A stretch of DNA of 20,000 nucleotides. It comes from an uncultured virus (IMG/VR IMGVR_UViG_3300045738_001977) (taxonomy: Duplodnaviria; Heunggongvirae; Uroviricota; Caudoviricetes). The notes beneath the pieces were generated by a model. That model searched no databases. It was not told the DNA's origin and saw only the letters and a program-made list of their open reading frames with translations. Position 1 is the stretch's first letter. Each line of letters begins with the position of its first letter. The translations under genes were made by a program, and so were the position numbers. The DNA lies in IMG/VR virus record IMGVR_UViG_3300045738_001977; one strand, given 5' to 3'. Shown here piece by piece: positions 3,001-17,317 of the stretch.

Positions 3001-3074
3001 AAATCGGAGAAGAATTTGAAAAACTAGGAATAGAATATACAGCGGCACCGCCAACTAATATACAAAACGTATAA
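3..3074 (+). CDS. C-terminal part of a very large tape-measure-like / internal virion protein (5'-truncated by the window)
   Basis: The frame of the ORF-track call 99..3074 is open back to position 3 (SLNDKYGNIYTNKSAKTGQRFTAFSPDGKAIG-M), so ATG99 is probably internal. The protein is Ala/Gly/Lys/Gln-rich with helical, coiled-coil-like stretches, no Cys, and two PNF[S/A] motifs (783-794, 969-980). It lies immediately upstream of tail/baseplate-like genes, the usual tape-measure position. The function is inferred. Confidence 0.6.
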   Translation, partial: SLNDKYGNIYTNKSAKTGQRFTAFSPDGKAIGMYEVVPSVGEGFNEKTGKGTSRLQAVQGLGKGPGTLPPGTILRNINRMAEESQEKSAGKTEGATWRSDKLQETKPVLAAKHIPTPAAPALAAPALATVATPADESKADRKKRKQGRRKKRAEKKAGQNIPPSTAPLVPTKSPPESGHVMNYDPKSGSYLITNGSLGDVGQIIGPDGKVLGEITVTGEHSKRKEGNLMTVATSTMPPGTDPTGSIVRWGKKEAKYSGFVPNFSTGLERAIKAENKATGGQAEVRTSPTLHVAARGQEKWPFAKSHPEGIQAAIANSKATQIPNFAPPAKPDGATTALAKVEKDLADKIKRLTNTLSTTGERLLPVGDGLSQLATIEKGQIKAVQKSTNAYQKAVRNKASAVDIATAFKNAQKAQTELSRTQTDITSIKEIKRLEKIDKKSGQAKITGATTIQGVSAQRGLKGTVIDPTRARAKPKAGPTKTGGWQNIVPGAGAGSGGGASGIPGVVGRAHSASAALGRRHPRPAPTGTTYSDPSGVRITRPSVTGPTPAATGAVTPPTGTPTFTTAPPTIRPAAAPAPPARAAPLEDPRSFKGKMQRIRLQKQAEKDAQAAANRASRGPGGPAAPAPPTGMGGPPGGQVQREDQEVDYEVEQSTENLLNIKTTIEQLTAQAKQDRSDMGAGKAGASARFAQTQAELTKAIEEREKAWRKDEKLKSPEAKKARTLKKRLGKHAKPLTFERTGEDTEGASAMMQPAFGDPLGSRFNTAGGGEGVGQQQTYNLGDGRTINLGAGGLSSAAALAMVPGMATGSTSGPRGGAPGVSATTSSTTTGMPPGVSATTSSAATGIPALTGQAAMVQGLPADTSDQRETRERALRATYPDRDPVRAGGETGNAEGDGERIVKAMTDAINASFATSIPKFADAMSAKIGEIFSTNNKPETGGDAETPTEFVSTGGDEGAISGTIKHDLGELDGHFTMEIGGKLEGVGLSAEEINNLIIAKIGEEFEKLGIEYTAAPPTNIQNV
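354..383 (+). repeat. 15-bp tandem duplication encoding AAPAL x2
   Basis: gccgcacctgcgctc / gccgcacctgcactc (14/15 identical), in frame within the first CDS. Confidence 0.8.
2455..2544 (+). repeat. 45-bp in-frame tandem duplication (PGVSATTSSTTTGMP / PGVSATTSSAATGIP)
   Basis: cccccggcgtttcagccacaacttcctcgaccacaactgggatgc vs cccccggcgtttcggccacaacttcctcggccgcaactgggatac: 41/45 identical, all mismatches A<->G. Confidence 0.9.
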
Positions 3075-3104
3075 TAAAAACACAGGAAAAAGGAAAAAGG
3101 AAAA
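3064..3104 (+). promoter_or_regulatory. Candidate promoter/RBS region: AAAACGTATAAT overlapping the stop, followed by (AGGAAAA)x3
   Basis: TATAAT at 3070-3075, double stop TAA TAA, and a perfect 7-nt tandem repeat AGGAAAA at 3084-3090, 3091-3097 and 3098-3104 running into ATG3104. Confidence 0.45.
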
Positions 3105-5671
3105 TGCATGACCATACAGTATATACGGGGAACCCCCAGCAGCCCGGTGGAGGATGGCCTAATCCAGCCACAGACCCCAATAATCAAATGCATCCTCTTC
3201 CTTGGGATATAGACTGCATAAAAACAAGAGGTATTAATATAAAACAAAATTGGTTGGGGGAAATTATACATTTCCAAAACGTAACCACTCAAACATTTGA
3301 AATATTTTTTGTAAATCCTGCCACCCAAAAAGATTTAGAAAAATGGATAGCAAAAATAAATGAATATGAAGACGTTGGTGGATGGAGAGATGAACTTAAT
3401 CTTTATGGAATAATAATTGAAAACTGTAGAATCACCAGTATAACCGCGCCGACAAGTGAAAACCGAATGGAAGACGCCGTAGGCCGTGGGCGAATAGATA
3501 TAACGGTAGAGCAAAGGAAGTGCGGCGGTGATGTAGAAAGCGGCAGCTTAGCCGCTAGAGAAAGAGAAGTGGTGCTACCGTGTTACGAATGCACGAAAGA
3601 CGGAGTGGTCACGGGTGATTATGTAGAGGGCGCGGGAGCGCTAGACCCTCACGGTGTAGCTATTCTGGCGTGCGAAACATTGTTGGCTGCTGCCGCTCCC
3701 AGCGGTACATCAACAACGGCAGCACCAAGCTCCGCCGTAATAGGGGCAGTTCAAACAAGCGACGTAAATTGCGCCGGTATGACAACGCCAACCTCAGTAT
3801 ATGATTACGACGGATCCCTCTACCCCGGCGACAATGATTTCGGGTTAACTAGCTTATTAACAGACGCTTGTCCTTTTATAGATGATATTCAAGAAGATTT
3901 TAAATTTAATTATGGCAAGGGGAATAGTCTTGATTTTAGTCATTCAGTAAGTATTAAATTATTTGATAGCTGCCCGAAAGGAGTTGATCCAAGCTGCGCG
4001 GGTTTAGGAACCAGTACGACAGCGCATCCACCGGGTAATTGTGGTCCGGGTACCCCGGGAAGCAAGGTTCCTAAATTTAACGAAGGTACCGCTCCCGGAC
4101 AATACCAAGGGGATGACGGAGATAAGACTGATGGCAAAAGTATTTGTAGACCCGGACAATACAATGTTGACCAAGCGCTACGGCTTGCTAGGCATATGCT
4201 AGATAAAAATACTCCACACTTTGGGATAGCATTTCACCCGGGAATTTTACGAGACGTGGATGATCCCACGGGTGGACATGCTGTCCAAGCTCCACTTGAT
4301 GATGAGCGCGTTATCCCCTATTACACAGAAACTCAAAATCTAATTACGGGTGAAGTCTCTATGGTAAAAAGGTTAACGATCCTAAAAGAGAGGGACGATA
4401 TGCTAAATTATTCCGCAGACTATAGTCATTCTTTACGAGTGGACGGGGGAGGTATAGTAACGGTAACAGAAAAGGGGAAAATTAGAGGCAACAAAAAACA
4501 ACCATTAGCAACCAACGCATTAAATCCTTCAGGAGTATCAGACGACGCATACAAGCGCGCTAAGGAAGGAATGGATGATTTACTGGGGGCAAATTTTTCG
4601 AAAGCCGAAACCAGATGCGTAGATTTCTGGGGGGCTCATAGAGAATTTTATAAAAATTATTTTGATGGCCTTGGCGAACCGCTTAAAAATGATCCGAAAT
4701 ACGGTTTAACAGGTCTCGTGTCAGATTTAAAAGTAGAACACCCTATGCAAAAAACCAGAAACTTCAACGAAGTAACTAGAGAATGTTCTTATTCTATAAC
4801 ATTTTCTACTGCAACAAATATGTTTGAAAATTTCATGGCGAACAGAACCTTAACCGCTTCTAGGGGTAAGTTCGGCTCAATAACCATAAAAGAAAAATCA
4901 GACTTAACCTCATACGTCCCCAAGGGGGAAGATCGAAAAAAAATAGACCCCGCCACAGGAGGCATAATAAACGAAGCAGACGACCTTACAGACCCGAGAG
5001 ACCCCACTAAAATGGTTGTTGATAGTCCAATTGAAATAATATTTCCAGAAGATTACAGGGGTAAACGTGACCCAGTAACTAACGCGCTCGACGCAACCAC
5101 CGGAGCAAAAGCAAGGGTAATGGAATTTTATAATGACCTGTTAGCTAACACGGTAGATTTTAAAGCTCCAAACCCACAGGGGTGCGCAGACCCATTAAAG
5201 CTATGGTCAAGGAGCGTGAACTGGAGCCCAAGCGGTCGAGGTTTAAGTTACACCGTGCAATTTACCACGGACAAAACAGTTTCGTGTGAATATCCAGACA
5301 AGCACGGAATAAGAAAAACAGAAGTATCAACAAACGATAACTTGCCGAAAAGAATGCACAAAGAGCATCCTATCGTTAATAATAAGGTATTAGTTCATGA
5401 CCCAAAACAAAGCAAGCTAGGGTCGAGAACAGTAACTTTAAATATAAGTTTAGAAAGAGTACCAAAACGCAATATGTTAAAAGACCCGCTACTTCCAGAA
5501 GTGGCGTTAAAAGAATTAATGACTAGAGCAAAAGCTGAAATATTAAAAGTATTTACTGATTATGATGATCTCGTTGCAGACGACATGCATGTGAAGCTGT
5601 GTAAGTATACATTTGATTCAAAATGGAAAGCAACAGTGACAGTCGCGGTAGATTATTTACAAAAGAAATAA
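3104..5671 (+). CDS. Putative phage tail structural protein (855 aa) with tandem tail-tube/Dit-like beta domains and Cys-rich inserts
   Basis: Long ORF with a purine-rich AGGAAAA x3 leader. Recurrent strand patterns: IENCRITSITAP..GRIDITVE; TETQNLITGEVSMVKRL; KTRNFNEVTRECSYSITF; SRSVNWSPSGRGLSYTVQF. It sits directly after the tape-measure-like gene. The CDS is secure; the product is inferred. Confidence 0.55.
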   Translation: MHDHTVYTGNPQQPGGGWPNPATDPNNQMHPLPWDIDCIKTRGINIKQNWLGEIIHFQNVTTQTFEIFFVNPATQKDLEKWIAKINEYEDVGGWRDELNLYGIIIENCRITSITAPTSENRMEDAVGRGRIDITVEQRKCGGDVESGSLAAREREVVLPCYECTKDGVVTGDYVEGAGALDPHGVAILACETLLAAAAPSGTSTTAAPSSAVIGAVQTSDVNCAGMTTPTSVYDYDGSLYPGDNDFGLTSLLTDACPFIDDIQEDFKFNYGKGNSLDFSHSVSIKLFDSCPKGVDPSCAGLGTSTTAHPPGNCGPGTPGSKVPKFNEGTAPGQYQGDDGDKTDGKSICRPGQYNVDQALRLARHMLDKNTPHFGIAFHPGILRDVDDPTGGHAVQAPLDDERVIPYYTETQNLITGEVSMVKRLTILKERDDMLNYSADYSHSLRVDGGGIVTVTEKGKIRGNKKQPLATNALNPSGVSDDAYKRAKEGMDDLLGANFSKAETRCVDFWGAHREFYKNYFDGLGEPLKNDPKYGLTGLVSDLKVEHPMQKTRNFNEVTRECSYSITFSTATNMFENFMANRTLTASRGKFGSITIKEKSDLTSYVPKGEDRKKIDPATGGIINEADDLTDPRDPTKMVVDSPIEIIFPEDYRGKRDPVTNALDATTGAKARVMEFYNDLLANTVDFKAPNPQGCADPLKLWSRSVNWSPSGRGLSYTVQFTTDKTVSCEYPDKHGIRKTEVSTNDNLPKRMHKEHPIVNNKVLVHDPKQSKLGSRTVTLNISLERVPKRNMLKDPLLPEVALKELMTRAKAEILKVFTDYDDLVADDMHVKLCKYTFDSKWKATVTVAVDYLQKK

Positions 5672-5677
5672 AAAATT

Positions 5678-8600
5678 ATGGCACTAACAACGGCATTAGG
5701 AGCAGGGGCAGTTCAAGTCCAATACGACGGTAGAACGCCGTGGGGCGCAGCTCCGCCTTATGTTTCTATTGATCGGGAGCCAATATTTTATGGAGGAAAA
5801 TGGGGTCAAGTTGCAAAAATAACCTTAACAGGCGAGATAAGTCAATACGCTTATCTTTATGATTTAATTAAAATGGGGGCGTGCGATCCAACCGTCCCCG
5901 CTTCCCCCGGTTGCTTTTTCACAGACGGAAGCCCATTTGAAATTACGCTAGAATACCCCAAGGGTTTAAAGAATTTAGAAAAAATAAGAGACGATATTAT
6001 TGAGACTTTCAGCAATAGTCTTAGGACATTTGAGTTCGAAGACACTCAGGTTCCACCTAATAAAATGGAGTTTGATAACGTTATTGTGGAAAGCGTTGAT
6101 TTTCCTCCGTCTGGCTATTGGGGGCTATTAAATTATTCTATTTCATTAAAATGCTATGAGCAGGATTATTTTATGGCTCAAGGAATAGTGGACGCTGTTG
6201 ATGAATTTCAAACAACTGAAAATGAAAACGGTACATTAAGCGTAAGCCATAGAATTTCAGCCAGAGGGGTTGATTATACTGACGAAGCAGGAGTCAGGCA
6301 ACATGGCCTTTCCAACGCGATTACTTGGGTAGATTCCAGAAAGGGAACTCAATATAAATCTGAAGAAGGAATATATAAAGCATGGTGGGGCGGAACAGGC
6401 GTTGAGGGGGATATGGCTGTGGAACCTTTTGGACCTACGCAAGAAAACGAAGACGTGGGCGCGGTTTGGTTGGCTACATCTGAGCCGGTTAAGGCGATTA
6501 AATTAATTTTATTAAACCAAGATGAATCAATCAACAGACTTATTGGCACTTACGCGGTTTCAGAAAGCTTTATTGGTTATCTTGATATTGATAACAACAG
6601 GTCTGGACTACCATTTGGAAGAAAATTTTCGGTAAACATAAATGAATCACTAACATCGGACTTTAATGTTGTAACAGTTACGGGGGAATACGTCGGAGGA
6701 AAAGATACCACCCTAAAAGAATTAAGAGACGGGTTCGTAAAAGATGGCTGGACGGACACTTCTGTGAGTCCGCCGGTATTTCATCCTAACGAGCCAGAAA
6801 CAATGCTTTTTGAAAAAGCGAAAGAGCTCTCGGGGTTTGACGGAAGCTTACTAAAGCCCCCTCATCCTGACGCGGGAAAATACCATAAACCATTATTATA
6901 TAATATACCTATGGGATTTACGGTTGAAGAAAGCGAAACAGATAAAACAATAAATATTAAAGCCACATTTGATACAAACCCACTGTTTGTTGATGACGCC
7001 GGCAACCCAACTAGACATTTCTTCAACCATAAAATATCTGTCAAGATGGACGAACTTACAAATGTTGCGACAGTATCAATCGATGGGCAACTACAGATAA
7101 GAGGCCTCGCGGCAGAAAAACAATTCTATTTAAAAGAATTTTTAGAAAATCTAGATGTAATGGATTTCTTGTGGAAGAAAGCCGACCATCAACACGCAAA
7201 GATAGGAAACACTTGTTGGGAATGCACTGGTGGTAAATATCCAACGGGTCATTCTCTCGTCGGTCAACCCGTTTATGGAACTGGTAACTATTGGATAAGG
7301 GCAGATATAGGAGATTTATACGATGAGGCTAAGGACATTTGTAGCAATCATCCCTATGCAGGAAGTTTGCCCGCTGGAGCAACTCCAGACAGGTGTCACG
7401 ATCTAAACCGTAGCGCAAAATCTTTGTCCATAGTTCAAAACACGGCCAAAAACACAGCGGCGTTAACCGCTTCTTTTAGCGATGAAGACACTCTACCAAT
7501 TGAGCTACAAAATCCTGATGATGGTACTTGTTTTCAGTGCGAGGTTATGGGCAACAATTCAGATCTTGGAATTTTAGGTGATCTAGTTGCTGTCGTTTTT
7601 GTTTCTTTACCCCTACCGCCAAATCCCATCGACGCTGCTACGCTCTTGTGTCCTGATTCTTATGACGCTGCGACAAATCCAAGCGGTACACAGGCGGTTG
7701 CCTGTCCTGCAAGCGGAATAAATACGCTTTCGCCAAGCCCTCTGTTAGACACGGGCAAAGACTACGGAAGAGCCGGGTTTAATATAGATGTAACATCTCC
7801 AGTTGATTACGCAAAAACAAACGCATCGGCGCAAGCAAAATACAATGGTCATTGGGCAATACAAAAATTCGGCATCAAGACAAGAGAAAAATCAAACGTT
7901 AAAGTTGATTTGCAATTTAGAGAAGACGCAGGCGTACCTCAAAGACTCATGGAGCCAGTGTTAAGAAAACAAGCTAAAGATATACAGGAAACTTTAAACA
8001 GCATGCTTGATCAAGGTGGAGGTGCCGCGCAAGGAGTAAGCCCGGTTTACGACATCGCTGAGCGCGTCACGCATAAAGAGTCTAAAGGAGATAAAGTTGG
8101 TCACGCGTTACAAAGAAGCTATGCGCCTGACGCAGATCATACAATTTGCGTAGATATCGATCCGATTGGCGATCAAAAAAATTGTTTTGTGTGTGTTGAC
8201 GCAAACGGAGTTATAGCAGTTTCTCCCACCATGGGAGACAAAGTTTATGCTTATCCGGAAAACTCTGTAACTACAACCCCTGCTACCGGTGCAACCCCAG
8301 CCGCCAGTGCAACGGTCGCCCAACAACTATGTGATCAATTGGGTTTAAGCATTGGAATTGATCCCTCTGACCCCTCCACTGGATTACCTTTAACCCCGGG
8401 GGATTGTGGATATTGTTATAAATGTATTGATGGGTACGAAGTAATTCACTCAGAGGTATACGCTGAAAGCATTGAAGAAGCTCAGGTTAAATGCGGTGGG
8501 GGCGCGATTGGGGTGACAACAACCTCGGGAGGAGTAACTACGACAAGTGATCCTATGAGGTACCAGCTTGCTTGGTCTTGCGACGACAGACCTCCATCAA

Positions 8601-9028
8601 TTTGTTATCAATGTATACATCAAGGCCCGGACTCAGGTGGAACTGTTCCGCCTCCAACAATTCTTTATCCTGCGGCGGGAGGTTTTAACACTTTCGACCC
8701 ATTTTTTGCTACCGACATTTGTGTCCATGAATCTAACGGCGGCGCATCGTTTACATTTGACACAAGTGATGCCGAGTATATGGTGCAAGAATGTCCCGAA
8801 TTAGTAAATACCTGTTGGACGTGTTATTTTATGGGGGAAACTTTTGGTTTTGTAATGGCAACTGATGAAACTGACGCGAAAAACGAATGCTCGCTAATCA
8901 CTGGGGTTCCCCCGGTAATTGCCTCCTCAGACCTCTTCTTGCAAGTATGGAATTACTGCGATTTTGACGATTTATCTACCACAGCGCCGCCAACGACAAC
9001 AGCGCCTACACCCCGTTACTCGCCATGA
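5678..9028 (+). CDS. Putative phage tail structural protein (1116 aa), likely paralog of 3104..5671, with six copies of a 4-Cys module and a Thr/Pro C-terminal tail
   Basis: Long ORF 6 nt after the previous stop. Similar repeated strand patterns: FDNVIVESVDF..YSISLK; NQDESINRLIGTYAVSESF; GFTVEESETDKTINIKATF; SLSIVQNTAKNTAALTASF. I count 28 Cys, 24 of them in six C[YWF]xC..AxxxC..C modules. Its TGA stop overlaps the next ATG (ATGA). Confidence 0.55.
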   Translation: MALTTALGAGAVQVQYDGRTPWGAAPPYVSIDREPIFYGGKWGQVAKITLTGEISQYAYLYDLIKMGACDPTVPASPGCFFTDGSPFEITLEYPKGLKNLEKIRDDIIETFSNSLRTFEFEDTQVPPNKMEFDNVIVESVDFPPSGYWGLLNYSISLKCYEQDYFMAQGIVDAVDEFQTTENENGTLSVSHRISARGVDYTDEAGVRQHGLSNAITWVDSRKGTQYKSEEGIYKAWWGGTGVEGDMAVEPFGPTQENEDVGAVWLATSEPVKAIKLILLNQDESINRLIGTYAVSESFIGYLDIDNNRSGLPFGRKFSVNINESLTSDFNVVTVTGEYVGGKDTTLKELRDGFVKDGWTDTSVSPPVFHPNEPETMLFEKAKELSGFDGSLLKPPHPDAGKYHKPLLYNIPMGFTVEESETDKTINIKATFDTNPLFVDDAGNPTRHFFNHKISVKMDELTNVATVSIDGQLQIRGLAAEKQFYLKEFLENLDVMDFLWKKADHQHAKIGNTCWECTGGKYPTGHSLVGQPVYGTGNYWIRADIGDLYDEAKDICSNHPYAGSLPAGATPDRCHDLNRSAKSLSIVQNTAKNTAALTASFSDEDTLPIELQNPDDGTCFQCEVMGNNSDLGILGDLVAVVFVSLPLPPNPIDAATLLCPDSYDAATNPSGTQAVACPASGINTLSPSPLLDTGKDYGRAGFNIDVTSPVDYAKTNASAQAKYNGHWAIQKFGIKTREKSNVKVDLQFREDAGVPQRLMEPVLRKQAKDIQETLNSMLDQGGGAAQGVSPVYDIAERVTHKESKGDKVGHALQRSYAPDADHTICVDIDPIGDQKNCFVCVDANGVIAVSPTMGDKVYAYPENSVTTTPATGATPAASATVAQQLCDQLGLSIGIDPSDPSTGLPLTPGDCGYCYKCIDGYEVIHSEVYAESIEEAQVKCGGGAIGVTTTSGGVTTTSDPMRYQLAWSCDDRPPSICYQCIHQGPDSGGTVPPPTILYPAAGGFNTFDPFFATDICVHESNGGASFTFDTSDAEYMVQECPELVNTCWTCYFMGETFGFVMATDETDAKNECSLITGVPPVIASSDLFLQVWNYCDFDDLSTTAPPTTTAPTPRYSP
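8183..8959 (+). repeat. Four tandem protein-level copies of a 4-Cys module at the C-terminus of 5678..9028
   Basis: CFVC..AQQLC..C (8183-8407), CYKC..AQVKC..C (8414-8581), CYQC..ATDIC..C (8603-8794), CWTC..AKNEC..C (8813-8959). No obvious DNA-level identity between copies. Confidence 0.8.
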
Positions 9029-11097
9029 ACATTGACCAAGGCATACTAAAGAAGAGAGTGTATCCGCTGGAACCGGTGGTTATTTATGATTTTGCACTTC
9101 CTAATCACCCAGATGCAGCGGCAATAGCGGCGGGAAATAAAATAGTTTTTAACTCTGTGCATGATGTGCCCAGTCATTTAGCTGGTGGGAGCAACATATT
9201 GAATATCTCTGCCGAAGCAATGCCCGGAATTTTAGTAGGACAACAAGACAATGTATTGAATTCAATTTTAGCTCAAGAAAATAAAGGAAGCTTCTTGGGG
9301 GAAGATATTATTTATGTGCCGAATACTAAGTCTCTCAAAAATTGGACTGTGTTCTTTGACGCAGAAATTAATTTTACCGGCGACAAGCAGAAGGCGGTCC
9401 CGTTGATGACAAACAAAGAGAAGGTAGATGATGCGGGTTGGGCAATTTTTATAGATGGTGGAGGATTTTTATCCTACGAATATAATAATACAAATGGAGA
9501 AAAAATAGGACATACACTCCAAGTATCTCTTCCGGAAAAATCTTTCATGGCCGCTTCAAAGGGCGATGATTTGATGTCGCTCTATGTATATGATACGGTT
9601 ACCGGAAAAATAAAAGGGGAAAAATCATTCGCAATAGATGAGCCCCCGTCAGCTAGAAATTGGACGATAGGTGGGCCAGAAAAACATTTTGAGAGTTTGC
9701 TCTCGTTTGATCCGTATACGTGGAATTGTTATAGGTGCCTTGATCAATATCAAAACTTCCTTAACTGCTTGTGGGCGCCTTCCGCGGACCACTTGAACCC
9801 TCTGGGATTGGCTCTTGGGACTACTCCGGATCAATGGGCGCTAAGCAATTGTCAGGCAAGCTCGGGTGATCTGAACGCCTCGGTTGAGCCTGACCTATCT
9901 GGGGCGTGTTGTGCTGACCTTAATCCTTACGAATCAGCAGGCGGAACGACAACAACCGCAGCAGGCACAACAACAACGACGGCGGCTCCCAACTTCGAAT
10001 ACGAAAGATTTTCGGGAGACATGAATCATATTATGATTTTTGATAGCTATATGAACGGGCAAACAGCGTTGGGCGTTTTTGAATCATTTCTTTTAACCGA
10101 ATACACGCCAGAACAAATCAAAGATGTTGCGACGCCATTCCAAAAACCCGGAGAGTATGTTGAAACTAAGGTCAGGGACGGAGTTGAGATTGATAGGTAT
10201 GAATATGTAAAAGAACAAATCGGAGATGCAGATATATATAACAAAGTGCCCGTTTACAAGCCTAAGTACAAAACGGTTAATCAATTTATAAACGCAGAAG
10301 GATTCATGACAAAAATGATTCCCACATTAATACCTGAGTCAAAAATCAAAGACAATACTTATGCCGCAAGCTATCACTCAGATAAATGTATTTCGTTAGA
10401 CTACACAACAGACACAGCCGAATACGTGGAGATTTATTCATGCGACGAAAGCTTTGGTAACACAAGCAAGAAGGCTGTATTCCAGCCCGGTGATTCAACT
10501 TTTAAATTAGACAAGGTATATGACGAAAACGAAATACAAGTATACCTAAATGGGCCTTCCGGCAAACAGGGGCTTCTAGAGCTTGGGGTCGATTACGAAG
10601 TGGTGGGCGGTCAAAAAATAAAAAAACTACAAACATCATTTGTAGAAATAGACGAATTAATATACGACATATATGAAGCTAGCAAACTGTATTTAGATTT
10701 CTTTGGGTATAGCGGTAACGTTTATATGTTTGGCATGAACGGTCAAGATGTATATCTAGACGGAAAAAAACTTATAAAAGATATAAACTACGAAGATACA
10801 GTAATAAATGGATACAATTACCTAATGATTCACAGCGCAGGATTATCTGCCGGAAGATTGGGGATTGTGGGAAGATATAATAATATAAACATAGATAAAA
10901 CATTATATTTTATGGGAAAATATCTACATTGTATAAGTTATGGGATTGTTGAAGAAATAACTTGGGTGGGAGGCAAAAGGGTTGTTAAAGAAAATGGTTA
11001 CGAATTAACGCATTCTGGTAATTTAAATAACTCGGAATACGCAGCCCCACAAAAAACAACGTTAATTTACAGCAATGAACAAGAAAATTTCTCATAA
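9025..11097 (+). CDS. LamG / concanavalin-A-like domain virion protein (690 aa) with C-terminal VYL[ND]G repeats
   Basis: N-half has LamG-superfamily hallmarks: 'VVIYDF', 'NWTVFF', 'GWAIFID', 'MSLYVYD', 'WTIGG' and 'FSGDMNHIMIFD' (cf. F-x-G-x-I-D-E-[LV]-x-I-[YF]). C-half has three VYLNG/VYLDG/TWVGG..Y repeats typical of phage structural proteins. Starts by ATGA overlap. Confidence 0.6.
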   Translation: MNIDQGILKKRVYPLEPVVIYDFALPNHPDAAAIAAGNKIVFNSVHDVPSHLAGGSNILNISAEAMPGILVGQQDNVLNSILAQENKGSFLGEDIIYVPNTKSLKNWTVFFDAEINFTGDKQKAVPLMTNKEKVDDAGWAIFIDGGGFLSYEYNNTNGEKIGHTLQVSLPEKSFMAASKGDDLMSLYVYDTVTGKIKGEKSFAIDEPPSARNWTIGGPEKHFESLLSFDPYTWNCYRCLDQYQNFLNCLWAPSADHLNPLGLALGTTPDQWALSNCQASSGDLNASVEPDLSGACCADLNPYESAGGTTTTAAGTTTTTAAPNFEYERFSGDMNHIMIFDSYMNGQTALGVFESFLLTEYTPEQIKDVATPFQKPGEYVETKVRDGVEIDRYEYVKEQIGDADIYNKVPVYKPKYKTVNQFINAEGFMTKMIPTLIPESKIKDNTYAASYHSDKCISLDYTTDTAEYVEIYSCDESFGNTSKKAVFQPGDSTFKLDKVYDENEIQVYLNGPSGKQGLLELGVDYEVVGGQKIKKLQTSFVEIDELIYDIYEASKLYLDFFGYSGNVYMFGMNGQDVYLDGKKLIKDINYEDTVINGYNYLMIHSAGLSAGRLGIVGRYNNINIDKTLYFMGKYLHCISYGIVEEITWVGGKRVVKENGYELTHSGNLNNSEYAAPQKTTLIYSNEQENFS
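10540..11001 (+). repeat. Three protein-level VYL[ND]G..L....Y repeats at 70-aa spacing
   Basis: VYLNG..LLELGVDYEV starts at 10540, VYLDGKKLIKDINYE at 10750, TWVGGKRVVKENGYE at 10960: exactly 210 nt apart. Confidence 0.7.
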
Positions 11098-11180
11098 AGC
11101 TAATAATTATTAATAAATATACGAGGAAACATAAAAAATGATTTTTTAAAAAAGTGTAATTTTAAGGGGAAAAGGCGATA
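11098..11180 (+). promoter_or_regulatory. AT-rich 83-bp intergenic region with candidate promoter AAAAAGTGTAAT and purine-rich AAGGGGAAAAGG leader
   Basis: Longest non-coding gap in the window. GTGTAAT at 11154-11160, AAGGGGAAAAGG at 11164-11175, a 12-bp palindrome TAATAATTATTA at 11101-11112, and an AT-only inverted repeat at 11132-11148. Confidence 0.45.
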
Positions 11181-14100
11181 ATGATCAAAAATATTAGAGG
11201 AATCAAGTTCTGCGGCACAAAAGACTGCAAGACTGTTACAGAGATGGGAGAGGCCTTCGGCGGAGGCATCTATAGCGCGTCATGTACTATTGGTTTTTCT
11301 AATGCTCCAACTAAAATTACTCTTAATATCGTAAGTGAAAATTCAGATTACACCATCGATCGCGACAAACACCTGAACGTAACAGACACGGGGGCAAACA
11401 CGATACAAATAGGGGGAGTGACCTCGGCCACGGGACCGGGTGGGGCGGCCGTGCTAACAGGCGAAGTAACATTTCGCAGGATGTATTTGTATTCTTTTAC
11501 TAAGAATAATAACCCCGGATCAAAAACTCTTTCTGTAAATTTTGTAGATCATTCCATTATGTTGGATAAAATCTTTGTTGGATTAATTGGCAGGCATGGC
11601 ACAAGAACCAACATACTCAATACAACTGACACTCAATATAATCCAGCTAACGATGTACAAGTTACGCCCGTCTCTATGACGTTTGGTTTCAGGTTGCACT
11701 GCTTGGAATGCAATGAGCTCAGGCCATCATCACTACTAACCCCTCCTTCGTCTGAACCTCCACACAAGATAACAAGGCTTGCTTACATGGCGGGAACCGG
11801 GGTGAAGTGCACCGGCGGGAAAATACCACTTAGAACTTATATTAATGTAAAGCCGGGAAAAGAATCCGTTAACGGTGGGTATATATTGTTGGGCCAAGAG
11901 CAATTTAAAGAAACGGAATGTGAAATACCAAGAGTCACATACACATTTGAAGATCTTTGTAATGCGCTTGACTATATTTTAGGGGGAGATCCCGAAGACT
12001 GTACTAGCGGCGGTGATACGGACAAAATGCACCATCACAATTTAAGAGACTTTAACAGGTCAATAACATATGAAGCAAATTATACAGGGACATTGAGAGA
12101 AGTGCTCAGCGCTTGGGCTGCAGATTTTAGTTTTGATTTTACATTTGATTATGAATCTTCTGACATAAGAGTTATTGGAATTGATTTAAAAGAAGCGATT
12201 GATCTAACAGACGTAAAACAAGCGATTGAAAGTGGGTTTGGTCCTGATTCAAAAGGAGGACTAATAAGAACCCACACAGAAACGAATAGTTTAGAAAATA
12301 CATATTACCAAACCCCCCTTGTTAAATTCATTAAACCGCCAAGGCCCTTCTCAAGGCAAAAAATTCATTATCAACCAAGGATAGGAAAAGTATTAACACC
12401 TAGGGAAGCTATCGGAAGTTCAGCCAACTTAGGAAGAACAGATGATGAAATGCACGTCAGCATGGCGTTGGCTAAGTATAGTCCGGAAGCAAGATTAATT
12501 TGGTTAAGCGACTTGGCTAGACGAAAGTCTGAAGACGTACATTGGTGTAACAAGTTTCACGCTGTAGGCGCAAACGTACCGTGGCCTCAAGCGAATGGCA
12601 GTTACATCCCCGCCAAAGATTACTCACAAGCGGGATATATCGGTGGTGGTTGGGGAAACCCGGACCCCGGCCCTGTCGGTGGCCCCCCACCCGCAGATTA
12701 TGTGGGCGTATCTGCCTCAATGCCGAGCGTAAACATAACACCGCTGGAATTCGAGAAGTACGCCGGAATTGACGTGCCCGATGCATTGGCCTTGTCGCAG
12801 CAATTCAAGGGTGGGTGCGCTCCCAATTCTCAATCTTGTACGCATGATGATTGTCTTGATACGAACATCGTTACCGCAGCTACCGATTCACCATGTAAGT
12901 GTCCGAAAACCGGCGCCTTCGATCATCTTTTCAACCCCTTTAAGCATGGGTATTGTAGTAACCCAAATTATTCGTCAGCATTTAGTTGTCTGTCTATCAA
13001 AAATCATATCGGAGGAGTCTCGATACCGATGTATAAGTGGACTCCTAACGTAAATGATATAAAGCTTCAGGCGGAAACTCCTTGGCCCGCGTTAGGATTT
13101 TTTCCCTCAATCAACTTTAACAAATTCATTGATAAAACAGTAACTGTTCCACACAAGGGATATCAGTTGATAGAAAATCCGTCTGGCAGCGCTGGCACAC
13201 CGTCCGAGGCGCAGTGGATTGCTGCTGATCTGAAGCCGGTGGCTGCAGGGGTAGCAGTAGCAACAGACCCAGCCGTAATTGCAGGCATGGAAGGTACTGA
13301 TCCCGGTGTGCTCGAATTATGGAATCCAGCCTATCTTGTGAAGGGCACTAAGAGGCCAGACGTAAGGTACATTAATCCGGCGCTGAAGGCCGACCCATTG
13401 ACAGGCAAATTAGTTTTTGCTACTTCCCTCGACGCCAACAACAATGCAGTAATAAATGGTTGCACTCTAAAAGACCCCGGGTTTCTTTATCCAACTTATA
13501 GAGCGAATCCTCCGGAAAAATCTGAATGCATTAACGAAGGAAATTGTTATCATTACCACGAAAGAAATAGGAATGGCGCGGCACATTTTGAGCTTAGGAC
13601 AGATCTAGCCGCAAAATACGATCTATGCACTAAGCAGGCTCACCCCATCTGGTGTGATGCGGGCAAGTTTTCTGTCTACTTAGGGATATGGAGCGAGACT
13701 TATCAAGATGCTACTGGAGAATTTGACAAAGAATTAGCAGATAATTTCTTGGGCAAATACGGGTATTGGTATGGCAACAGAACTTCTGACGATGAGGTTG
13801 AGTTAGGAATCTTTAATGAAGGCCCGATGAATCCACCCCCGGATGAAAGACAATGCCCCAAAGTTACTTTCGATCTGGAAGGATGCCAACAGCACGCTTT
13901 GTATAAATACGAACACAGAATAAGCACTCTTCCAGAAAGTAAAATTTATTCAGGGCACAGTTATCCATTTGATAATATACTCAGAGCGCATGGAGGATTT
14001 TTCGCTTTACCCCAAGGAGAAACAGATACAGATCCGCATTGTACTTATTGCCCGCAAAGATCAATTTTTGAGATAGAAGATAACGCTTGGGGAACGCCAC

Positions 14101-15917
14101 CCGATCAAGTGACGGCAATGCTAAGAAATAAATACATAATCGATTCAAAAGATACAACTTTTTACAAAGATCCAAATGTTATATCTGACTTAGGTATATA
14201 TAGACCAAAATACGCAAGGATTGACAGACTGAAGCAGGGGGTTATAAACCATTATCAAACCATCGTAGGACTTGAAAACTGGAAAGATTCTATAATGAAG
14301 CCAGAATATATGAAGTCTGGATATGCACCCGGCATAGCATTTATCCCTCATTTGGATAAAATGACGATCGACAACAACATTGGAGGTGCCACACCCCAAA
14401 TAGAACCTCTATTAAAATTAGACTACGATCATTGGACATGCACCAAGCGACAAGTTGAAGGCGCTGAAAACGCAGACGGAAAAATCGTGGGAACTTGTTC
14501 TGATCCATTTTACTCAACCAGTGCAGACTGTATAACGCACGGACATTGTTCTAACGCGGCGTGGCATACGAAAATTGAATGCGAACTTCCCGCCAACGCT
14601 ACTGTGACAAGCGCAGATGATTCGACGGCAAAAGTTGGAATATGGTATCCAAACACGTGGACACCTAACGTCGGATGGACCGCCGCGCATGATCATTGGT
14701 GTTACACAGGCGCTTGCGTGTCGACGGCAATAACCACGACCTCGGCACCCCTTCCAAAAACATGCTATATATGTCTAGAGGCAGGGGAAACAATTTCTAC
14801 AACACCGGTAAAATGTGTTTATACTTCAGCTACACCTTCCGTCTCCCCCTCGATATGTAGCGATGATATATTACAGGAATGTTCAGGTACATATACCAAT
14901 ATATCTAGTTACGCGCCAGACGCCGCTGGCGCATGCTCCTGTCCGCCGTGTTGCCCGGCGACGACAACGGGAGCCCCAGTGACAACAACATCATCGTCAT
15001 CTGCGACAACGGCCGCTCCGTCGGGAACAACAACAACAGGGGCGCCGGTGACAACAACACCATCGTGCGCTGTCGATGTGGGAGTAACCAATAAAGGATC
15101 AGAAGTATTTGGCGCTTTTGTATATAGCAATTACGCAAGAAGAAAAGAAGAGTCCAGAATAGGTTCCCCCAAAGAATGCATACTATATTGCGAAGAAGAT
15201 ATAAAATCTGAAATTTGTGATTGCCCCGATATAGAAGAACCCATTCACCAATTTCAAAGTTGGGCATCAAAATACCTAAAAATTACGCACATAACTGACG
15301 TAGTAAATATTCTGTACCCAATCGAACATAATTACAAGGGGTTCTGGGTGTCAGAACAAGAAGAAAAAGGGACAACCATGAAAAAACAAATAGTCATGGG
15401 CGAGCCACCAGTTCCGGATCAATTAAAATCAGCAAACGTAATGGCAACAAGAATTATTGACATTGACGCAACTCCGGAGCTTGACGCTCTTGAAGCTACA
15501 ACTGCAGGAAAATTTGAAGAACGGCTCGTCGTTACCAATAGTCATTTGAGCCCTCCGCAACCAGAGGTGGTTTCTTTACCTCAGTATTATACGTTCGTTC
15601 AGGGGATAGCGCAAAGCGCGGATCAGCCGGGAGAAACAATAAACGTAAAATTAGATGGCACCGAATTTGATACATTTCGAGAAACTTTACCCGACGGTAC
15701 ATCAGTAAATCTTTTAACTCCCGCGAATGGCTTGGCTACGTTTACCATTTCGTTGGACGGAGAAGGAATAAGCACGAGTTTATCATTTAGGTCTAGGCCC
15801 AAAAAGCTTCCCAAACGAGATGTATTACTGCAAAAAATAGGGCCAAGGGCTCTAGAGGGACAAATGTCGAAACCAACAACTAACCAAACAAGGTACCGAG
15901 CACTACCAAAGTCATGA
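11181..15917 (+). CDS. Large putative baseplate hub / tail-tip protein (1578 aa) with extensive Cys-rich and Thr-rich insertions
   Basis: Long ORF with an AAGGGGAAAAGG leader. The N-terminal 'GGIYSASCTIGFSNAPTKITLNIV' and 'YTGTLREVLSAWAADFSFDFTFD' segments and the C-terminal 'FTISLDGEGISTSLSF' strand resemble the layout of gp27/gp44/Tal-like hub proteins (pattern recognition only). Confidence 0.45.
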   Translation: MIKNIRGIKFCGTKDCKTVTEMGEAFGGGIYSASCTIGFSNAPTKITLNIVSENSDYTIDRDKHLNVTDTGANTIQIGGVTSATGPGGAAVLTGEVTFRRMYLYSFTKNNNPGSKTLSVNFVDHSIMLDKIFVGLIGRHGTRTNILNTTDTQYNPANDVQVTPVSMTFGFRLHCLECNELRPSSLLTPPSSEPPHKITRLAYMAGTGVKCTGGKIPLRTYINVKPGKESVNGGYILLGQEQFKETECEIPRVTYTFEDLCNALDYILGGDPEDCTSGGDTDKMHHHNLRDFNRSITYEANYTGTLREVLSAWAADFSFDFTFDYESSDIRVIGIDLKEAIDLTDVKQAIESGFGPDSKGGLIRTHTETNSLENTYYQTPLVKFIKPPRPFSRQKIHYQPRIGKVLTPREAIGSSANLGRTDDEMHVSMALAKYSPEARLIWLSDLARRKSEDVHWCNKFHAVGANVPWPQANGSYIPAKDYSQAGYIGGGWGNPDPGPVGGPPPADYVGVSASMPSVNITPLEFEKYAGIDVPDALALSQQFKGGCAPNSQSCTHDDCLDTNIVTAATDSPCKCPKTGAFDHLFNPFKHGYCSNPNYSSAFSCLSIKNHIGGVSIPMYKWTPNVNDIKLQAETPWPALGFFPSINFNKFIDKTVTVPHKGYQLIENPSGSAGTPSEAQWIAADLKPVAAGVAVATDPAVIAGMEGTDPGVLELWNPAYLVKGTKRPDVRYINPALKADPLTGKLVFATSLDANNNAVINGCTLKDPGFLYPTYRANPPEKSECINEGNCYHYHERNRNGAAHFELRTDLAAKYDLCTKQAHPIWCDAGKFSVYLGIWSETYQDATGEFDKELADNFLGKYGYWYGNRTSDDEVELGIFNEGPMNPPPDERQCPKVTFDLEGCQQHALYKYEHRISTLPESKIYSGHSYPFDNILRAHGGFFALPQGETDTDPHCTYCPQRSIFEIEDNAWGTPPDQVTAMLRNKYIIDSKDTTFYKDPNVISDLGIYRPKYARIDRLKQGVINHYQTIVGLENWKDSIMKPEYMKSGYAPGIAFIPHLDKMTIDNNIGGATPQIEPLLKLDYDHWTCTKRQVEGAENADGKIVGTCSDPFYSTSADCITHGHCSNAAWHTKIECELPANATVTSADDSTAKVGIWYPNTWTPNVGWTAAHDHWCYTGACVSTAITTTSAPLPKTCYICLEAGETISTTPVKCVYTSATPSVSPSICSDDILQECSGTYTNISSYAPDAAGACSCPPCCPATTTGAPVTTTSSSSATTAAPSGTTTTGAPVTTTPSCAVDVGVTNKGSEVFGAFVYSNYARRKEESRIGSPKECILYCEEDIKSEICDCPDIEEPIHQFQSWASKYLKITHITDVVNILYPIEHNYKGFWVSEQEEKGTTMKKQIVMGEPPVPDQLKSANVMATRIIDIDATPELDALEATTAGKFEERLVVTNSHLSPPQPEVVSLPQYYTFVQGIAQSADQPGETINVKLDGTEFDTFRETLPDGTSVNLLTPANGLATFTISLDGEGISTSLSFRSRPKKLPKRDVLLQKIGPRALEGQMSKPTTNQTRYRALPKS
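14961..15065 (+). repeat. Duplicated TTTGAPVTTT unit in a Thr/Ser-rich tract
   Basis: acgacaacgggagccccagtgacaacaacatcatcg (14961) vs acaacaacaggggcgccggtgacaacaacaccatcg (15030); period 69 nt, differences mostly synonymous. Confidence 0.75.
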
Positions 15918-17317
15918 TATTTAAAGGATCCAACACCAGACTATTGACAGGGCAGAAAAATATATCATTTCTGTTAAGTAAGTCTTCTGTTAACAATACC
16001 ACAGGAAGCGTGCACTTTGGGTTTAGTGGGGAAGGTGAATCAATTCAATTTATATTTAAAAAAGGTAGGATTTATGATTTTAATAATAAGTATGTTCATA
16101 GTTATAGTCCTTCTGAAGAATTTATATTGTCTGGAGATATATCAGGAGATTATTACAATTATTCAATTAACGGGGTAGACATAGTTACAGGAAAAAACAA
16201 AAAGAATTTTAAAATTGAAAACTTTTTTATAAATACTGATTCCTGCGAATTAGAAGCATCTTTATTTATTTATTCTGATGGAATTGATCATACGTTCACA
16301 CTTCCAGACAAAATGCTTCGTGGAGATAATGTAATTGCTCAAATGACGAATAACTCCCCCGATGGGAATCTACACATATATAGCGCCACGCTAAAAGGGG
16401 AAACAGATACAAACTATTCTGTCGTTTTATATCCGACAGATATAGGGCCGACTGAAACAGGAAATTTTGAATTTAGTAACTTGGATTTAAGTTCGGGGAA
16501 TAATTCTTTTGAAATGGAGTTAGATACAAATGTAGGGAAAATTTACATAGCCGACTCAATACAAGTTACCGACCCCGAGCAAGTGTCTGCAATAAATACA
16601 TTAGAAGAGCTCACAACTAACGCAAGCGAAGTTTTAACTTTTGACACAATAAATAGCGAAGAGTTCGTTTATTATGTTTACCGTTCGTCAATATTTGCGG
16701 CATCTTATACGCCTCAAGAGGTTGTAGTAAGTCTCGGATACGAAGAAGGAAATGTAGGAACTTATCACAGGGTAACGGAAATAAGTATTACTGACTCTGG
16801 AACAGGATATACGGAAGCTCCAATCGTAACTTTCAGCGCGGGGCAAGGGAATGACGTGCAAGCCGAAGGAATCGCGGTTATAACAGACGGTGGGGTTTCC
16901 AGCGTAACAATAGAAAATTCAGGAGTTTATTATAACGCCGCTCCAACTATGTCGTTTTCTGGTGGGGCACCAGACCCGTACACAATAACGCCTGCTCAAT
17001 TCTCCGTAACGACAGAAACGTATGAAAAAACTTTTACAGAATGTTTTGCTATTGCCACGGGGATAGCATACGAATCATTAACGAGCTATGACTCACTGGC
17101 ACACCTAAATGAAGGGCCCATTGGCCCCTACTATAGCAGTATAACTCCTACCTCCCTGTTTAGTGATCAAAATTTTTATATACGAATAAAGGGCAAAACC
17201 TTTTATGACTTTGATACAATCAAAGCAAAATTAACAATAGCAGGAATCTTGGAAGACTCCAACACAAACAGGCAAATAGAAGAAATAATAATTTCTTCCG
17301 GAAACACAGCGGCATAA
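15914..17317 (+). CDS. Putative baseplate/tail structural protein (467 aa) with GxGY..AP.V beta repeats
   Basis: ATGA overlap with the upstream gene. Acidic and beta-rich. Contains VTEISITDSGTGYTEAPIVTFSAG..AEGIAVITDGGVSSVTIENSGVYYNAAPTMSFSGG (16772-16966), the repeat familiar from baseplate-wedge, sheath and VrlC-like proteins of T4-like phages. Confidence 0.55.
   Translation: MIFKGSNTRLLTGQKNISFLLSKSSVNNTTGSVHFGFSGEGESIQFIFKKGRIYDFNNKYVHSYSPSEEFILSGDISGDYYNYSINGVDIVTGKNKKNFKIENFFINTDSCELEASLFIYSDGIDHTFTLPDKMLRGDNVIAQMTNNSPDGNLHIYSATLKGETDTNYSVVLYPTDIGPTETGNFEFSNLDLSSGNNSFEMELDTNVGKIYIADSIQVTDPEQVSAINTLEELTTNASEVLTFDTINSEEFVYYVYRSSIFAASYTPQEVVVSLGYEEGNVGTYHRVTEISITDSGTGYTEAPIVTFSAGQGNDVQAEGIAVITDGGVSSVTIENSGVYYNAAPTMSFSGGAPDPYTITPAQFSVTTETYEKTFTECFAIATGIAYESLTSYDSLAHLNEGPIGPYYSSITPTSLFSDQNFYIRIKGKTFYDFDTIKAKLTIAGILEDSNTNRQIEEIIISSGNTAA

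Follow-up and report, generated by a model that had tools for sequence, protein, structure and literature searches.

A small four-cysteine domain recurs in tail-tip proteins of uncultured marine tailed phages that belong to a single clade, and we read it, with a probability of roughly 55%, as a disulfide-stapled accessory domain added on to these proteins. Comparison of the sequences identifies seven copies in the DNA analyzed here as one real domain family; ORF B has six of them, and ORF A has the seventh. The analyses established this family, the class of its fold, its dispersal among genes, and its gain and loss site by site. Accessory tail domains are a known theme; what is new is a very small four-Cys fold family that Pfam, PHROGs, and NCBIfam do not list and that matches no PDB entry by sequence, so that the module is indeed not a named family, as an earlier note on this DNA had supposed.

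The window, the whole 20,000-nucleotide stretch that was analyzed, represents 20 kb of a 76.8-kb contig from an uncultured virus (IMG/VR IMGVR_UViG_3300045738_001977) and holds seven large ORFs (Table 1). All nine motif segments described by the earlier note translate in frame, and they lie in four consecutive plus-strand ORFs, A to D. Judged by its position, ORF 0 would be a tape-measure-like protein; it gave no Pfam, PHROG, or NCBIfam match. ORF A sits between ORF 0 and ORF B. ORFs A, C, and D carry no annotation and are assigned to the tail module on the basis of their position. The large proteins of this tail module have no family match except for the weak tail-fiber match of ORF E: searches of Pfam, PHROGs, and NCBIfam gave no match for ORFs A to D, and nothing had an E value below 0.4 when profiles of A, C, and D were compared with PDB sequences. 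No recognizable module was found in the portion of ORF F inside the window, while orthologues of ORF F contain modules together with collagen-like repeats.

Table 1. Genes, module copies, and candidate copies in the window
Feature	Coordinates	Strand	Length or residues	Remarks
ORF 0	3..3074	+	1023 aa, 5'-open	No Cys; low-complexity, Ala/Pro/Lys-rich
ORF A (P0001)	3104..5671	+	855 aa	Unannotated tail-module protein (by position); one module
Module copy in A	3581..3772	+	aa 160-223	C160, Y161, E162, C163, A186, C190, and C223 invariant in 4/4 syntenic orthologues
ORF B (P0002)	5678..9028	+	1116 aa	Dit/tail-tube-like N-terminal domain (aa 4-168) and conserved core; two inserted and four C-terminal tandem modules
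B module 1 (M1)	7214..7396	+	aa 513-573	Inserted in core loop; pLDDT 93-97
B module 2 (M2)	7529..7705	+	aa 618-676	Inserted; pLDDT 50-71 (low)
B module 3 (M3)	8183..8407	+	aa 836-910	Opens C-terminal tandem array; 11.7 bits against B-orthologue HMM
B module 4 (M4)	8414..8581	+	aa 913-968	25.6 bits against B-orthologue HMM
B module 5 (M5)	8603..8794	+	aa 976-1039	C976, C979, A1011, C1015, and C1039 invariant in 14/14 orthologues
B module 6 (M6)	8813..8959	+	aa 1046-1094	Copy folded alone; 26.3 bits against B-orthologue HMM
ORF C (P0003)	9025..11097	+	690 aa	Unannotated
Lineage-specific insertion in C	9691..10035	+	~115 aa, aa 223-337	Candidate module and Thr-rich linker
Candidate module in C	9727..9912	+		Two extra Cys; only CYRC head aligns to family profile
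ORF D (P0004)	11181..15917	+	1578 aa	Unannotated; large lineage-specific Cys-rich insertions
Hypervariable region of D	14364..15095	+	aa ~1062-1305	Candidate module and Thr/Pro linkers
Candidate module in D	14763..14954	+		Extra Cys; lacks Ala at position -4
ORF E	15914..17317	+	467 aa	Weak tail-fiber-like match to phrog_5342, E = 1.3e-10; no module
ORF F	17317..19998	+	894 aa, 3'-open	Cys-rich

Each of the nine segments opens with a C[YWF]xC head, and this head accounts for 9 of the 13 CxxC motifs present in the seven large ORFs. When the seven window proteins were shuffled 2000 times, the head motif occurred 0.29 times on average and 3 times at most, compared to 9 occurrences observed; the full pattern, which was observed 7 times in its strict and 9 times in its loose form, never occurred more than once, and the observed counts were reached in 0 of the 2000 shuffles. 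The consensus module is 34 to 80 residues long and consists of C-[YWF]-x-C followed by a β-hairpin and a helix with A-x3-C at its end; a variable loop then leads to a short strand and the final C. The Ala located four residues ahead of the third Cys, claimed for 8 of 9 copies, was confirmed from the translations, the exception being the copy in ORF D.

An HMM trained only on 59 copies from B orthologues matched copies in other proteins, namely, A, D, and F orthologues, at 18.7 to 31.4 bits. In the relative L002, the F orthologue scored 31.4 and 24.6 bits, the A orthologue copy 30.0 bits, and the D orthologue copy 27.4 bits, with the A orthologue copy of L004 at 18.7 bits; against an HMM built from all copies, the L002 D protein (P0168) scored 37.7 bits. 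An alignment of 32 copies, drawn from A, B, D, and F proteins in this phage and in its relatives, has C, C, A, C, and C as its sole invariant columns. A second, A6-derived HMM had no window sequence in its training set, and the best shuffled window protein scored 6.4 bits against it. By this measure M6 (24.5 bits), M4 (20.9 bits), and M3 (11.2 bits) are recognized directly, M2 (6.7 bits) and the A copy (6.4 bits) are borderline, and M1 and M5 taken alone score 1.3 bits or less. Orthologous copies of M1 scored 41.1 and 32.7 bits against the B-orthologue HMM, those of M5 scored 44.9 and 40.1 bits, and that of M2 in L001 scored 27.5 bits. We count M1, M2, M5, and the A copy as members of the family because their compact positional orthologues reach 41.1, 27.5, 44.9, and 30.0 bits, respectively. 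Mutual HMM similarity, proposed in the earlier note for all nine copies, therefore holds directly for M6, M4, and M3 and by way of orthologues for M1, M2, M5, and the A copy, but not for the copies in ORFs C and D.

For these last two copies, the alignment to the family profile is confined to the 9- to 12-residue CYxC head, with hhalign probabilities of 29% for the ORF C copy and 9% for the ORF D copy. The insertion that holds the ORF C copy is missing from all seven orthologues of C, and the corresponding hypervariable region of D contains a clean module in L002 and none in L004. The two are candidate members, as yet unproven. The earlier note had described a nine-copy module in four tail genes; the in-frame pattern does recur far beyond chance, and seven copies are homologous, but since the ORF C and D copies fall below significance, nine copies in four genes are not established for the window.

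The fold was predicted with AlphaFold for M6 as a single module (pLDDT 78.9; strands at residues 2 to 8, 11 to 18, and 46 to 48 and a helix at residues 21 to 32) and for full-length B (pLDDT 79.7), in which all six copies follow the order strand-strand-helix-strand. This agrees with the β-β-α order proposed before and adds a closing strand. In the models, C1 and C2 are three residues apart inside strand 1, a spacing that should point them to opposite sides; the helix contains C3, and C4 lies just past strand 3. The securely assigned copies have exactly four cysteines, an even number, in 32 of 32 aligned sequences. Two intradomain disulfides, C1-C4 and C2-C3, would staple such a fold. Copies with pairwise loss of cysteines, sought as a guide to the pairing, were not found, as every detected copy keeps all four. 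The arrangement differs from that of cysteine-stabilized alpha-beta (defensin-like) domains, in which a helix CxxxC is combined with a strand CxC, whereas the module has a strand CxxC and a single helix Cys. It resembles the designed disulfide-constrained EEHE mini-protein gEEHE_02 (PDB 5ji4), with strand-strand-helix-strand in ~37 residues (Z 2.8, rmsd 2.8, 35 of 37 residues); the match is weak and, unlike the module, 5ji4 is artificial, so the similarity indicates that the topology is viable as a disulfide-stapled scaffold and does not imply kinship. Foldseek returned 0 matches at E ≤ 0.001 for the single module against the PDB. PaaB, the best VIA-align match among 48,161 chains, was rejected as a fold relative, since its Z score of 5.7 is within the common range of the tool.

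A possible, if doubtful, alternative is that the four cysteines bind one zinc tetrahedrally, in a zinc-knuckle-plus-helix domain, akin to treble clefs or zinc ribbons and equally modular, whose folding would take place in the host cytoplasm. The cytoplasm in which virion proteins fold and assemble is reducing, so that four cysteines would more naturally bind zinc there, and the module shares with Cys4 zinc ribbons and treble-clef fingers a small size and the classic signature of a CxxC and two further invariant cysteines. Three zinc-finger families are among the weak Pfam matches (each with 1 of 32 members, E values of 0.047 to 0.12), and an archaeal-virus zinc finger appears in the fold list with a Z score of 2.3. 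However, the AlphaFold models place both cysteines of the CxxC within a β-strand rather than at a knuckle turn, and C3 in the final helical turn rather than at the helix N terminus. Zinc ribbons and treble clefs have two CxxC-type pairs, or a knuckle and a Cys pair at the helix N terminus, whereas the module has one CxxC and a fourth Cys that follows a variable loop, with a C3-C4 spacing of ~6 to 40 residues. Matches to any one zinc-finger family were limited to a single member of the 32, always with an E value above 0.04, and no PDB zinc domain stood out in the fold searches.

The four-Cys domain is not a constant part of the proteins that carry it. In a library of 1.84 billion proteins, we found 264 relatives of B. 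Approximately 55 distant homologues of B (517 to 689 aa, typically ~550) have no module at any site. In these homologues the M1 site is occupied by 0 to 18 residues in most and by 28 to 48 in three longer ones, the M2 site is essentially empty (0 to 6 residues), and the C-terminal array is missing. Modules 1, 3, 4, 5, and 6 are positionally fixed in all 14 close B orthologues, M2 is missing from 3 of them, and extra copies are found near the N terminus of P0017, in P0014, and at the C terminus of 5 of the 14. Orthologues of F have a module copy where ORF F of the window has a Thr-rich linker. Together with the absence of the ORF C segment noted above, these differences bear out the predicted presence or absence of modules at individual sites, and the sequence comparisons support the "plug-in" behavior that had been ascribed to the module. 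It had also been thought to have spread between unrelated virion proteins. The module does occur in the A, B, D, and F proteins of the clade, but "unrelated" goes too far, as a fold assignment is available for B only. The spread between genes, whether by duplication or by recombination, is ancient, because the copies share no similarity at the DNA level.

We consider it improbable that the segments are instead fixed, integral parts of each host protein, with a convergent Cys pattern providing local surface-loop staples rather than one movable domain. Such a view would fit the lack of a significant score for M1, M5, and the window copies in C and D taken alone, the lack of DNA similarity, and the constant position of five B modules in the close orthologues, but profiles derived from B match copies in A, D, and F at the scores given above, the five invariant positions and the order of secondary structures recur across the aligned copies, and whole modules have been gained or lost in B, C, F, and the variable region of D.

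Identity outside the cysteines is 20 to 38% in the modules compared to 57 to 64% in the core, and the modules have more gaps. Their loops cover an approximately 2-fold range of lengths and evolve about twice as fast as the host core, consistent with the variable loops that had been claimed. It is nonetheless highly implausible that the modules serve as the variable component of an active and targeted diversification process, such as DGR-like mutagenesis or cassette switching, by which the tail would be retargeted. Between orthologues, both the length and the sequence of the loops are hypervariable, as is the module-bearing region of D, but the 20 kb of the contig contain none of the template/variable repeat pairs that, with a reverse transcriptase, characterize a diversity-generating retroelement, the sole DNA common to the copies is Thr-codon linkers, the seven large ORFs gave no reverse transcriptase or recombinase match, and the variation, being between distant orthologues at 36 to 56% identity, is explained by ordinary divergence. 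The "diversification system" of the earlier note is not upheld within these 20 kb.

Among the host proteins of the module, the one with a fold assignment is ORF B. Its residues 4 to 168 aligned with an 80alpha baseplate chain (Z 10.3, rmsd 2.6, 108 residues aligned), with SPP1 Dit (Z 9.4), and with the phage p2 baseplate (Z 8.4); among the matches listed, 50 of 50 were phage tail or neck, GTA, CIS, tailocin, or T6SS Hcp proteins. B thus has the N-terminal tail-tube-like belt domain expected of a Dit protein, and its BFVD matches include Dit-like entries. With full-length B, Foldseek gave 0 PDB matches at E ≤ 0.001, and 15 distant B homologues gave nothing usable in Pfam or PHROGs. In the protein atlas, the B core falls with unannotated viral clusters (best 0.89), and the tandem array had no usable match. 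The Dit-like fold of B is also found in tube, tube-initiator, and hub proteins. A Dit protein would further be expected to assemble as a hexameric ring and to be encoded immediately after the tape measure gene, whereas here ORF A separates B from the tape-measure-like ORF 0.

Evolved Dit proteins of lactococcal and Lactobacillus siphophages carry inserted carbohydrate-binding modules. Like them, B combines a Dit/tail-tube-like N-terminal domain with a core whose accessory inserts are missing in module-less relatives. Unlike the β-sandwich carbohydrate-binding modules of ~150 residues, however, the inserts described here are four-Cys strand-strand-helix-strand units of 34 to 80 residues, and they occur in addition as a 4-fold tandem C-terminal array and in the neighboring A, D, and F proteins; carbohydrate binding would be putative at most. 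Ig-like, FN3, and BACON-type accessory domains are reportedly scattered over phage structural proteins and are thought to provide weak surface adhesion. The module resembles them as a small autonomous domain that takes varying positions in different virion proteins and is present or absent between relatives. It differs from their β-sandwich in being a mixed alpha/beta mini-domain with four invariant cysteines and no Pfam model: Ig-like and FN3 domains have ~80 to 100 residues and match the Pfam Ig, FN3, or Big models, whereas the module, with its predicted strand-strand-helix-strand order, can be as short as 34 residues.

On the preferred reading of a disulfide-stapled accessory domain, copies would have been inserted over evolution into surface loops of conserved cores (M1, M2, and the A copy), strung in tandem at the C terminus of B (M3 to M6), and gained or lost site by site in A-, B-, D-, and F-type proteins. 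The C1-C4 and C2-C3 bonds would staple the tiny fold, the invariant Ala may allow the helix to pack closely on the sheet, and the stapled scaffold would tolerate long, fast-evolving loops that are often rich in Thr, Pro, or Ala. The modules are probably exposed on the outside of the tail tip, where they could stiffen and extend it in oxidizing seawater and might play an adhesive role through low-affinity contacts with the host surface, like other accessory domains of phage structural proteins.

If the module is disulfide stapled, it would be a compact natural scaffold that tolerates a 2-fold expansion of its loops, of relevance to protein engineering and to virion stability in seawater. The module also illustrates clearly how a domain can be inserted into a Dit-like core in nature, and it offers a handle for annotating the tail-tip proteins of this marine phage clade. 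A bolder proposal, which at present we regard as unlikely, is that the module serves as a display scaffold of ~35 residues, naturally evolved and stapled by disulfides, a phage counterpart of knottin-like mini-binders, mobile between tail-tip proteins and carrying long hypervariable loops that dictate host recognition or make it broader across a widespread clade of marine phages that is wholly unannotated. Were this true, gain and loss of modules would be a main route of host-range change in the clade.

In favor of the disulfide reading, a study of the cyanophage Pam3 baseplate reports intra- and intersubunit disulfides, shown by mass spectrometry and DTT treatment (PMC9942802). Pam3 is likewise a case of an aquatic phage tail tip with cysteine-rich regions, but its cysteines are in loops of the wedge proteins, where they link the fibers to the wedge, and it has no repeated autonomous four-Cys domain (PMC9942802); no sequence relation to the module was found.

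The literature searched contained no description of such a four-Cys module. None of the Pfam, PHROG, or NCBIfam matches of the seven window proteins covered a module; when the 32 copies were scanned singly against Pfam, no family matched more than one member (best E value, 0.022), and the module profile gave a single match to PDB sequences, at an E value of 1.3. Neither the DNA nor protein B had a match in a phage collection, IMG/VR scanned with B and its alignment yielded no relative, and among proteins sharing 5-residue words and a further 174 proteins scanned, no copies were found outside the close clade. A scan of genome contigs recovered one 1.8-kb fragment only. A profile search for longer module-bearing proteins returned only the same clade and the chimeric-looking P0021, whose Pfam match to Zf_WRKY19 was discarded as a lead on the module, as it falls in an unrelated N-terminal part of that protein.

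Seven large, tightly packed ORFs occupy the plus strand of the window (0 and A to F), of which A, B, C, D, and F are Cys-rich (1.3 to 3.0% cysteine). ORFs 0, A, B, C, D, and F have no match in Pfam, PHROGs, or NCBIfam, and a phage collection gave no match to the window DNA or to protein B. The nine four-Cys segments described in the earlier note are all in frame and all open with C[YWF]xC, and the Ala four residues before the third Cys is kept in eight of them, as it had reported. The seven ORFs contain 13 CxxC motifs, 9 of them with the aromatic residue. In 2,000 composition-preserving shuffles, the head motif occurred at most 3 times versus 9 observed, and the full pattern at most once versus 7 (strict) or 9 (loose) observed.

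Coordinates of the ORFs, module copies, and other features in the window
Feature	Coordinates	Strand	Description
ORF 0	3-3074	+	5'-open, 1,023 aa, zero cysteine
ORF A	3104-5671	+	855 aa
ORF B	5678-9028	+	1,116 aa
ORF C	9025-11097	+	690 aa
ORF D	11181-15917	+	1,578 aa
ORF E	15914-17317	+	467 aa
ORF F	17317-19998	+	3'-open, 894 aa within window
A copy	3581-3772
B module 1	7214-7396
B module 2	7529-7705
B module 3	8183-8407
B module 4	8414-8581
B module 5	8603-8794
B module 6	8813-8959
C candidate	9727-9912
D candidate	14763-14954
ORF 0 tandem repeat	2455-2544		45-nt direct repeat, 91% identity
B two-Cys loop	5879-5917		aa 68-80 (C68...C80)
ACN-rich linker	8513-8544
ACN-rich linker	9946-9982
ACN-rich linker	14961-15066
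ACN-rich linker	17833-17864
ACN-rich linker	19591-19627
D short Cys motif	12954-12989	+	aa 592-603
D short Cys motif	14496-14531	+	aa 1106-1117
D short Cys motif	14547-14582	+	aa 1123-1134
D Cys-rich insertion	12552-13055	+	aa ~458-625
D Cys-rich insertion	13113-13580	+	aa ~645-800

Module 6 of B, modeled with an alignment of 32 module copies, was predicted to fold as strand-strand-helix-strand (E2-8, E11-18, H21-32, E46-48; pLDDT, 78.9). The same order appears in all six copies in a full-length model of B (78 sequences; pLDDT, 79.7), where confidence is 93 to 97 for module 1 and a poor 50 to 71 for module 2. These predictions recover the beta-beta-alpha scaffold proposed from the sequence alone, with an additional closing strand. 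Numbering the four Cys in order, C1 and C2 are predicted three residues apart in strand 1, C3 late in the helix, one turn past the invariant Ala, and C4 right behind strand 3. Because two disulfides, C1-C4 and C2-C3, suit this arrangement better than one tetrahedral site does, we infer that the Cys would pair in this way; a structural Cys4 zinc site is a possible, somewhat unlikely alternative. Foldseek returned no PDB match to the module at an E value of ≤0.001, and the best VIA-align match in PDB (Z, 5.7) was not meaningful; a designed disulfide-constrained EEHE mini-protein bears a weak likeness to it (Z, 2.8; 35/37 residues). We favor, with a probability of roughly 55%, an accessory mini-domain held together by disulfides and serving to decorate and extend tail-tip proteins. 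Its copies would have been inserted into loops and also appended in tandem, and would probably serve stability and weak contact with the host surface. Published work on the aquatic cyanophage Pam3 offers an experimental precedent for a disulfide-bonded baseplate (PMC9942802).

In an alignment of B with 13 close orthologues from marine metagenomes (BLASTP identity, 36 to 51%), C, C, A, C, and C are invariant in all 14 sequences for each of modules 1, 3, 4, 5, and 6. A metagenome scan yielded four loci, L001 to L004; of these, L002 and L004 are syntenic with the window, sharing its gene order 0-A-B-C-D-E-F. An HMM trained on 59 compact B copies (≤50 residues) from orthologues alone, with no window copy, matched the L002 orthologues of F (31.4 and 24.6 bits), A (30.0 bits), and D (27.4 bits) and the L004 orthologue of A (18.7 bits); the best score among 1,400 shuffled window proteins, obtained with a related HMM rather than this one, was 6.4 bits. 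In the window, scores were strong for modules 4 and 6, weak for module 3, and no more than marginal for the A copy. The A copy is the positional orthologue of the L002 and L004 A copies, and its five key residues are invariant in 4/4 sequences. Across the 32 aligned copies, which come from proteins A, B, D, and F, five columns and no others are invariant (C, C, A, C, and C). The cross-protein matches, the A-copy orthology, and these columns therefore place seven of the nine window copies (A and six in B) in one family, and convergent local staples are an improbable source of the similarity. In this clade, members of the family occur in at least four different tail-module proteins. The kinship claimed for all nine copies was not recovered for the C and D candidates, which align with the family profile over their first 9 to 12 residues and nothing beyond (hhalign probability, 29% and 9%, respectively). 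With HMMER, the D copy scored 1.6 bits and no match was listed at the C copy; both carry extra cysteines and may be degenerate members.

Module presence varied by site among orthologues of B, C, D, and F, in keeping with the idea of a plug-in unit. With B as the query, exhaustive HMMER searching recovered 264 relatives, most of 520 to 650 aa with few cysteines; 78 were aligned, and residues were tallied at each module site. The short, distant homologues number ~55. In these, 0 to 18 residues and at most one Cys occupy the module 1 site (sole exception, P0047, with 28 residues and 2 Cys), 0 to 6 residues occupy the module 2 site, and there is little or no sequence alignable to the C-terminal array; core blocks flanking the modules (aa 576 to 606 and 700 to 815) are present in all. 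Two longer homologues have 36 (P0028) and 48 (P0034) residues at the module 1 site. Within the 14 close B orthologues, module 2 is absent in 3 and a seventh, C-terminal module is present in 5. An additional module lies behind module 3 in P0014 and near the N terminus in P0017, where window B has a two-Cys loop; this loop, opposite a complete four-Cys module, could be either what is left of a module or a precursor site for one. In C, the ~115-aa segment bearing the candidate is missing from all seven orthologues, and the D region is hypervariable, with a clean copy in L002, none in L004, and a divergent Cys-rich stretch in the window. Both F orthologues (L002:13581-16547 and L004:16203-19289) have copies where window F has a Thr-rich linker, and several four-Cys modules near their C termini, a part that in window F falls past the window end. 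In a 592-aa metagenome protein, P0021, the C-terminal half of a B orthologue is fused behind an array of Zf_WRKY19-like repeats at the N terminus (PF24906; five stretches; E, 6.8e-14); this protein has the look of a chimera produced by assembly or gene calling.

Outside the shared Cys, pairwise identity among the 14 B sequences is 20 to 38% in modules versus 57 to 64% in core blocks, and gapped positions make up 13 to 35% versus 0 to 8%. Module lengths range, e.g., from 34 to 56 or 40 to 64 residues, the window copies being among the longest. This pattern is consistent with loops that are exposed and under loose constraint, carried by a fixed scaffold. Within the window, the copies share no DNA similarity besides Thr-codon linkers, so their spread is old. 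These Thr/Ala/Pro-rich linkers with ACN-rich repeats, often within or adjoining module loops, are the sole DNA-level repeat common to the tail genes. With neither a repeat pair nor a reverse transcriptase in the 20 kb, an active form of the diversification system raised as a possibility in the earlier note is highly improbable.

Searches of Pfam, PHROGs, NCBIfam, and PDB sequences gave no match to the module, which bears out the impression that it belongs to no named family, and a full-text literature search found no such module described. Phage structural proteins with accessory domains at scattered positions are a known concept, as are evolved Dit proteins into which binding modules have been inserted; the domain itself has no counterpart in these databases.

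B aa 4 to 168 resembles Dit/tail-tube proteins (80alpha baseplate, Z 10.3; SPP1 Dit, Z 9.4; p2 baseplate, Z 8.4), and all 50 matches listed are phage tail or neck, GTA, tailocin, CIS, or T6SS Hcp structures. The best BFVD matches for B are uncharacterized Caudovirales proteins of 580 to 650 aa (E, 1e-10 to 3e-9), with several Dit-like entries lower down. Together with a weak PHROG match of E to tail fiber and collagen-like G-Y-Q repeats in the F orthologues, this supports a tail-module reading for B, E, and F. For 0, A, C, and D, this reading is positional; of the four tail genes designated in the earlier note, B gains structural backing. ORF 0 is low complexity and, by position, tape-measure-like, with a tandem repeat.

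D, ~400 aa longer than its relatives, has two big Cys-rich insertions missing from both syntenic orthologues. It also carries three occurrences of C-S-[DN]-x-x-[YW]-x-[ST]-x-x-x-C, a 12-residue Cys-to-Cys loop separate from the four-Cys module. F (27 Cys in 894 aa) has a dense Cys-rich region at aa ~195 to 370 that lacks C[YWF]xC, with several Cys invariant in a three-way alignment (e.g., C195, C246, C271, C300, and C327); it is another uncharacterized Cys-stapled region.
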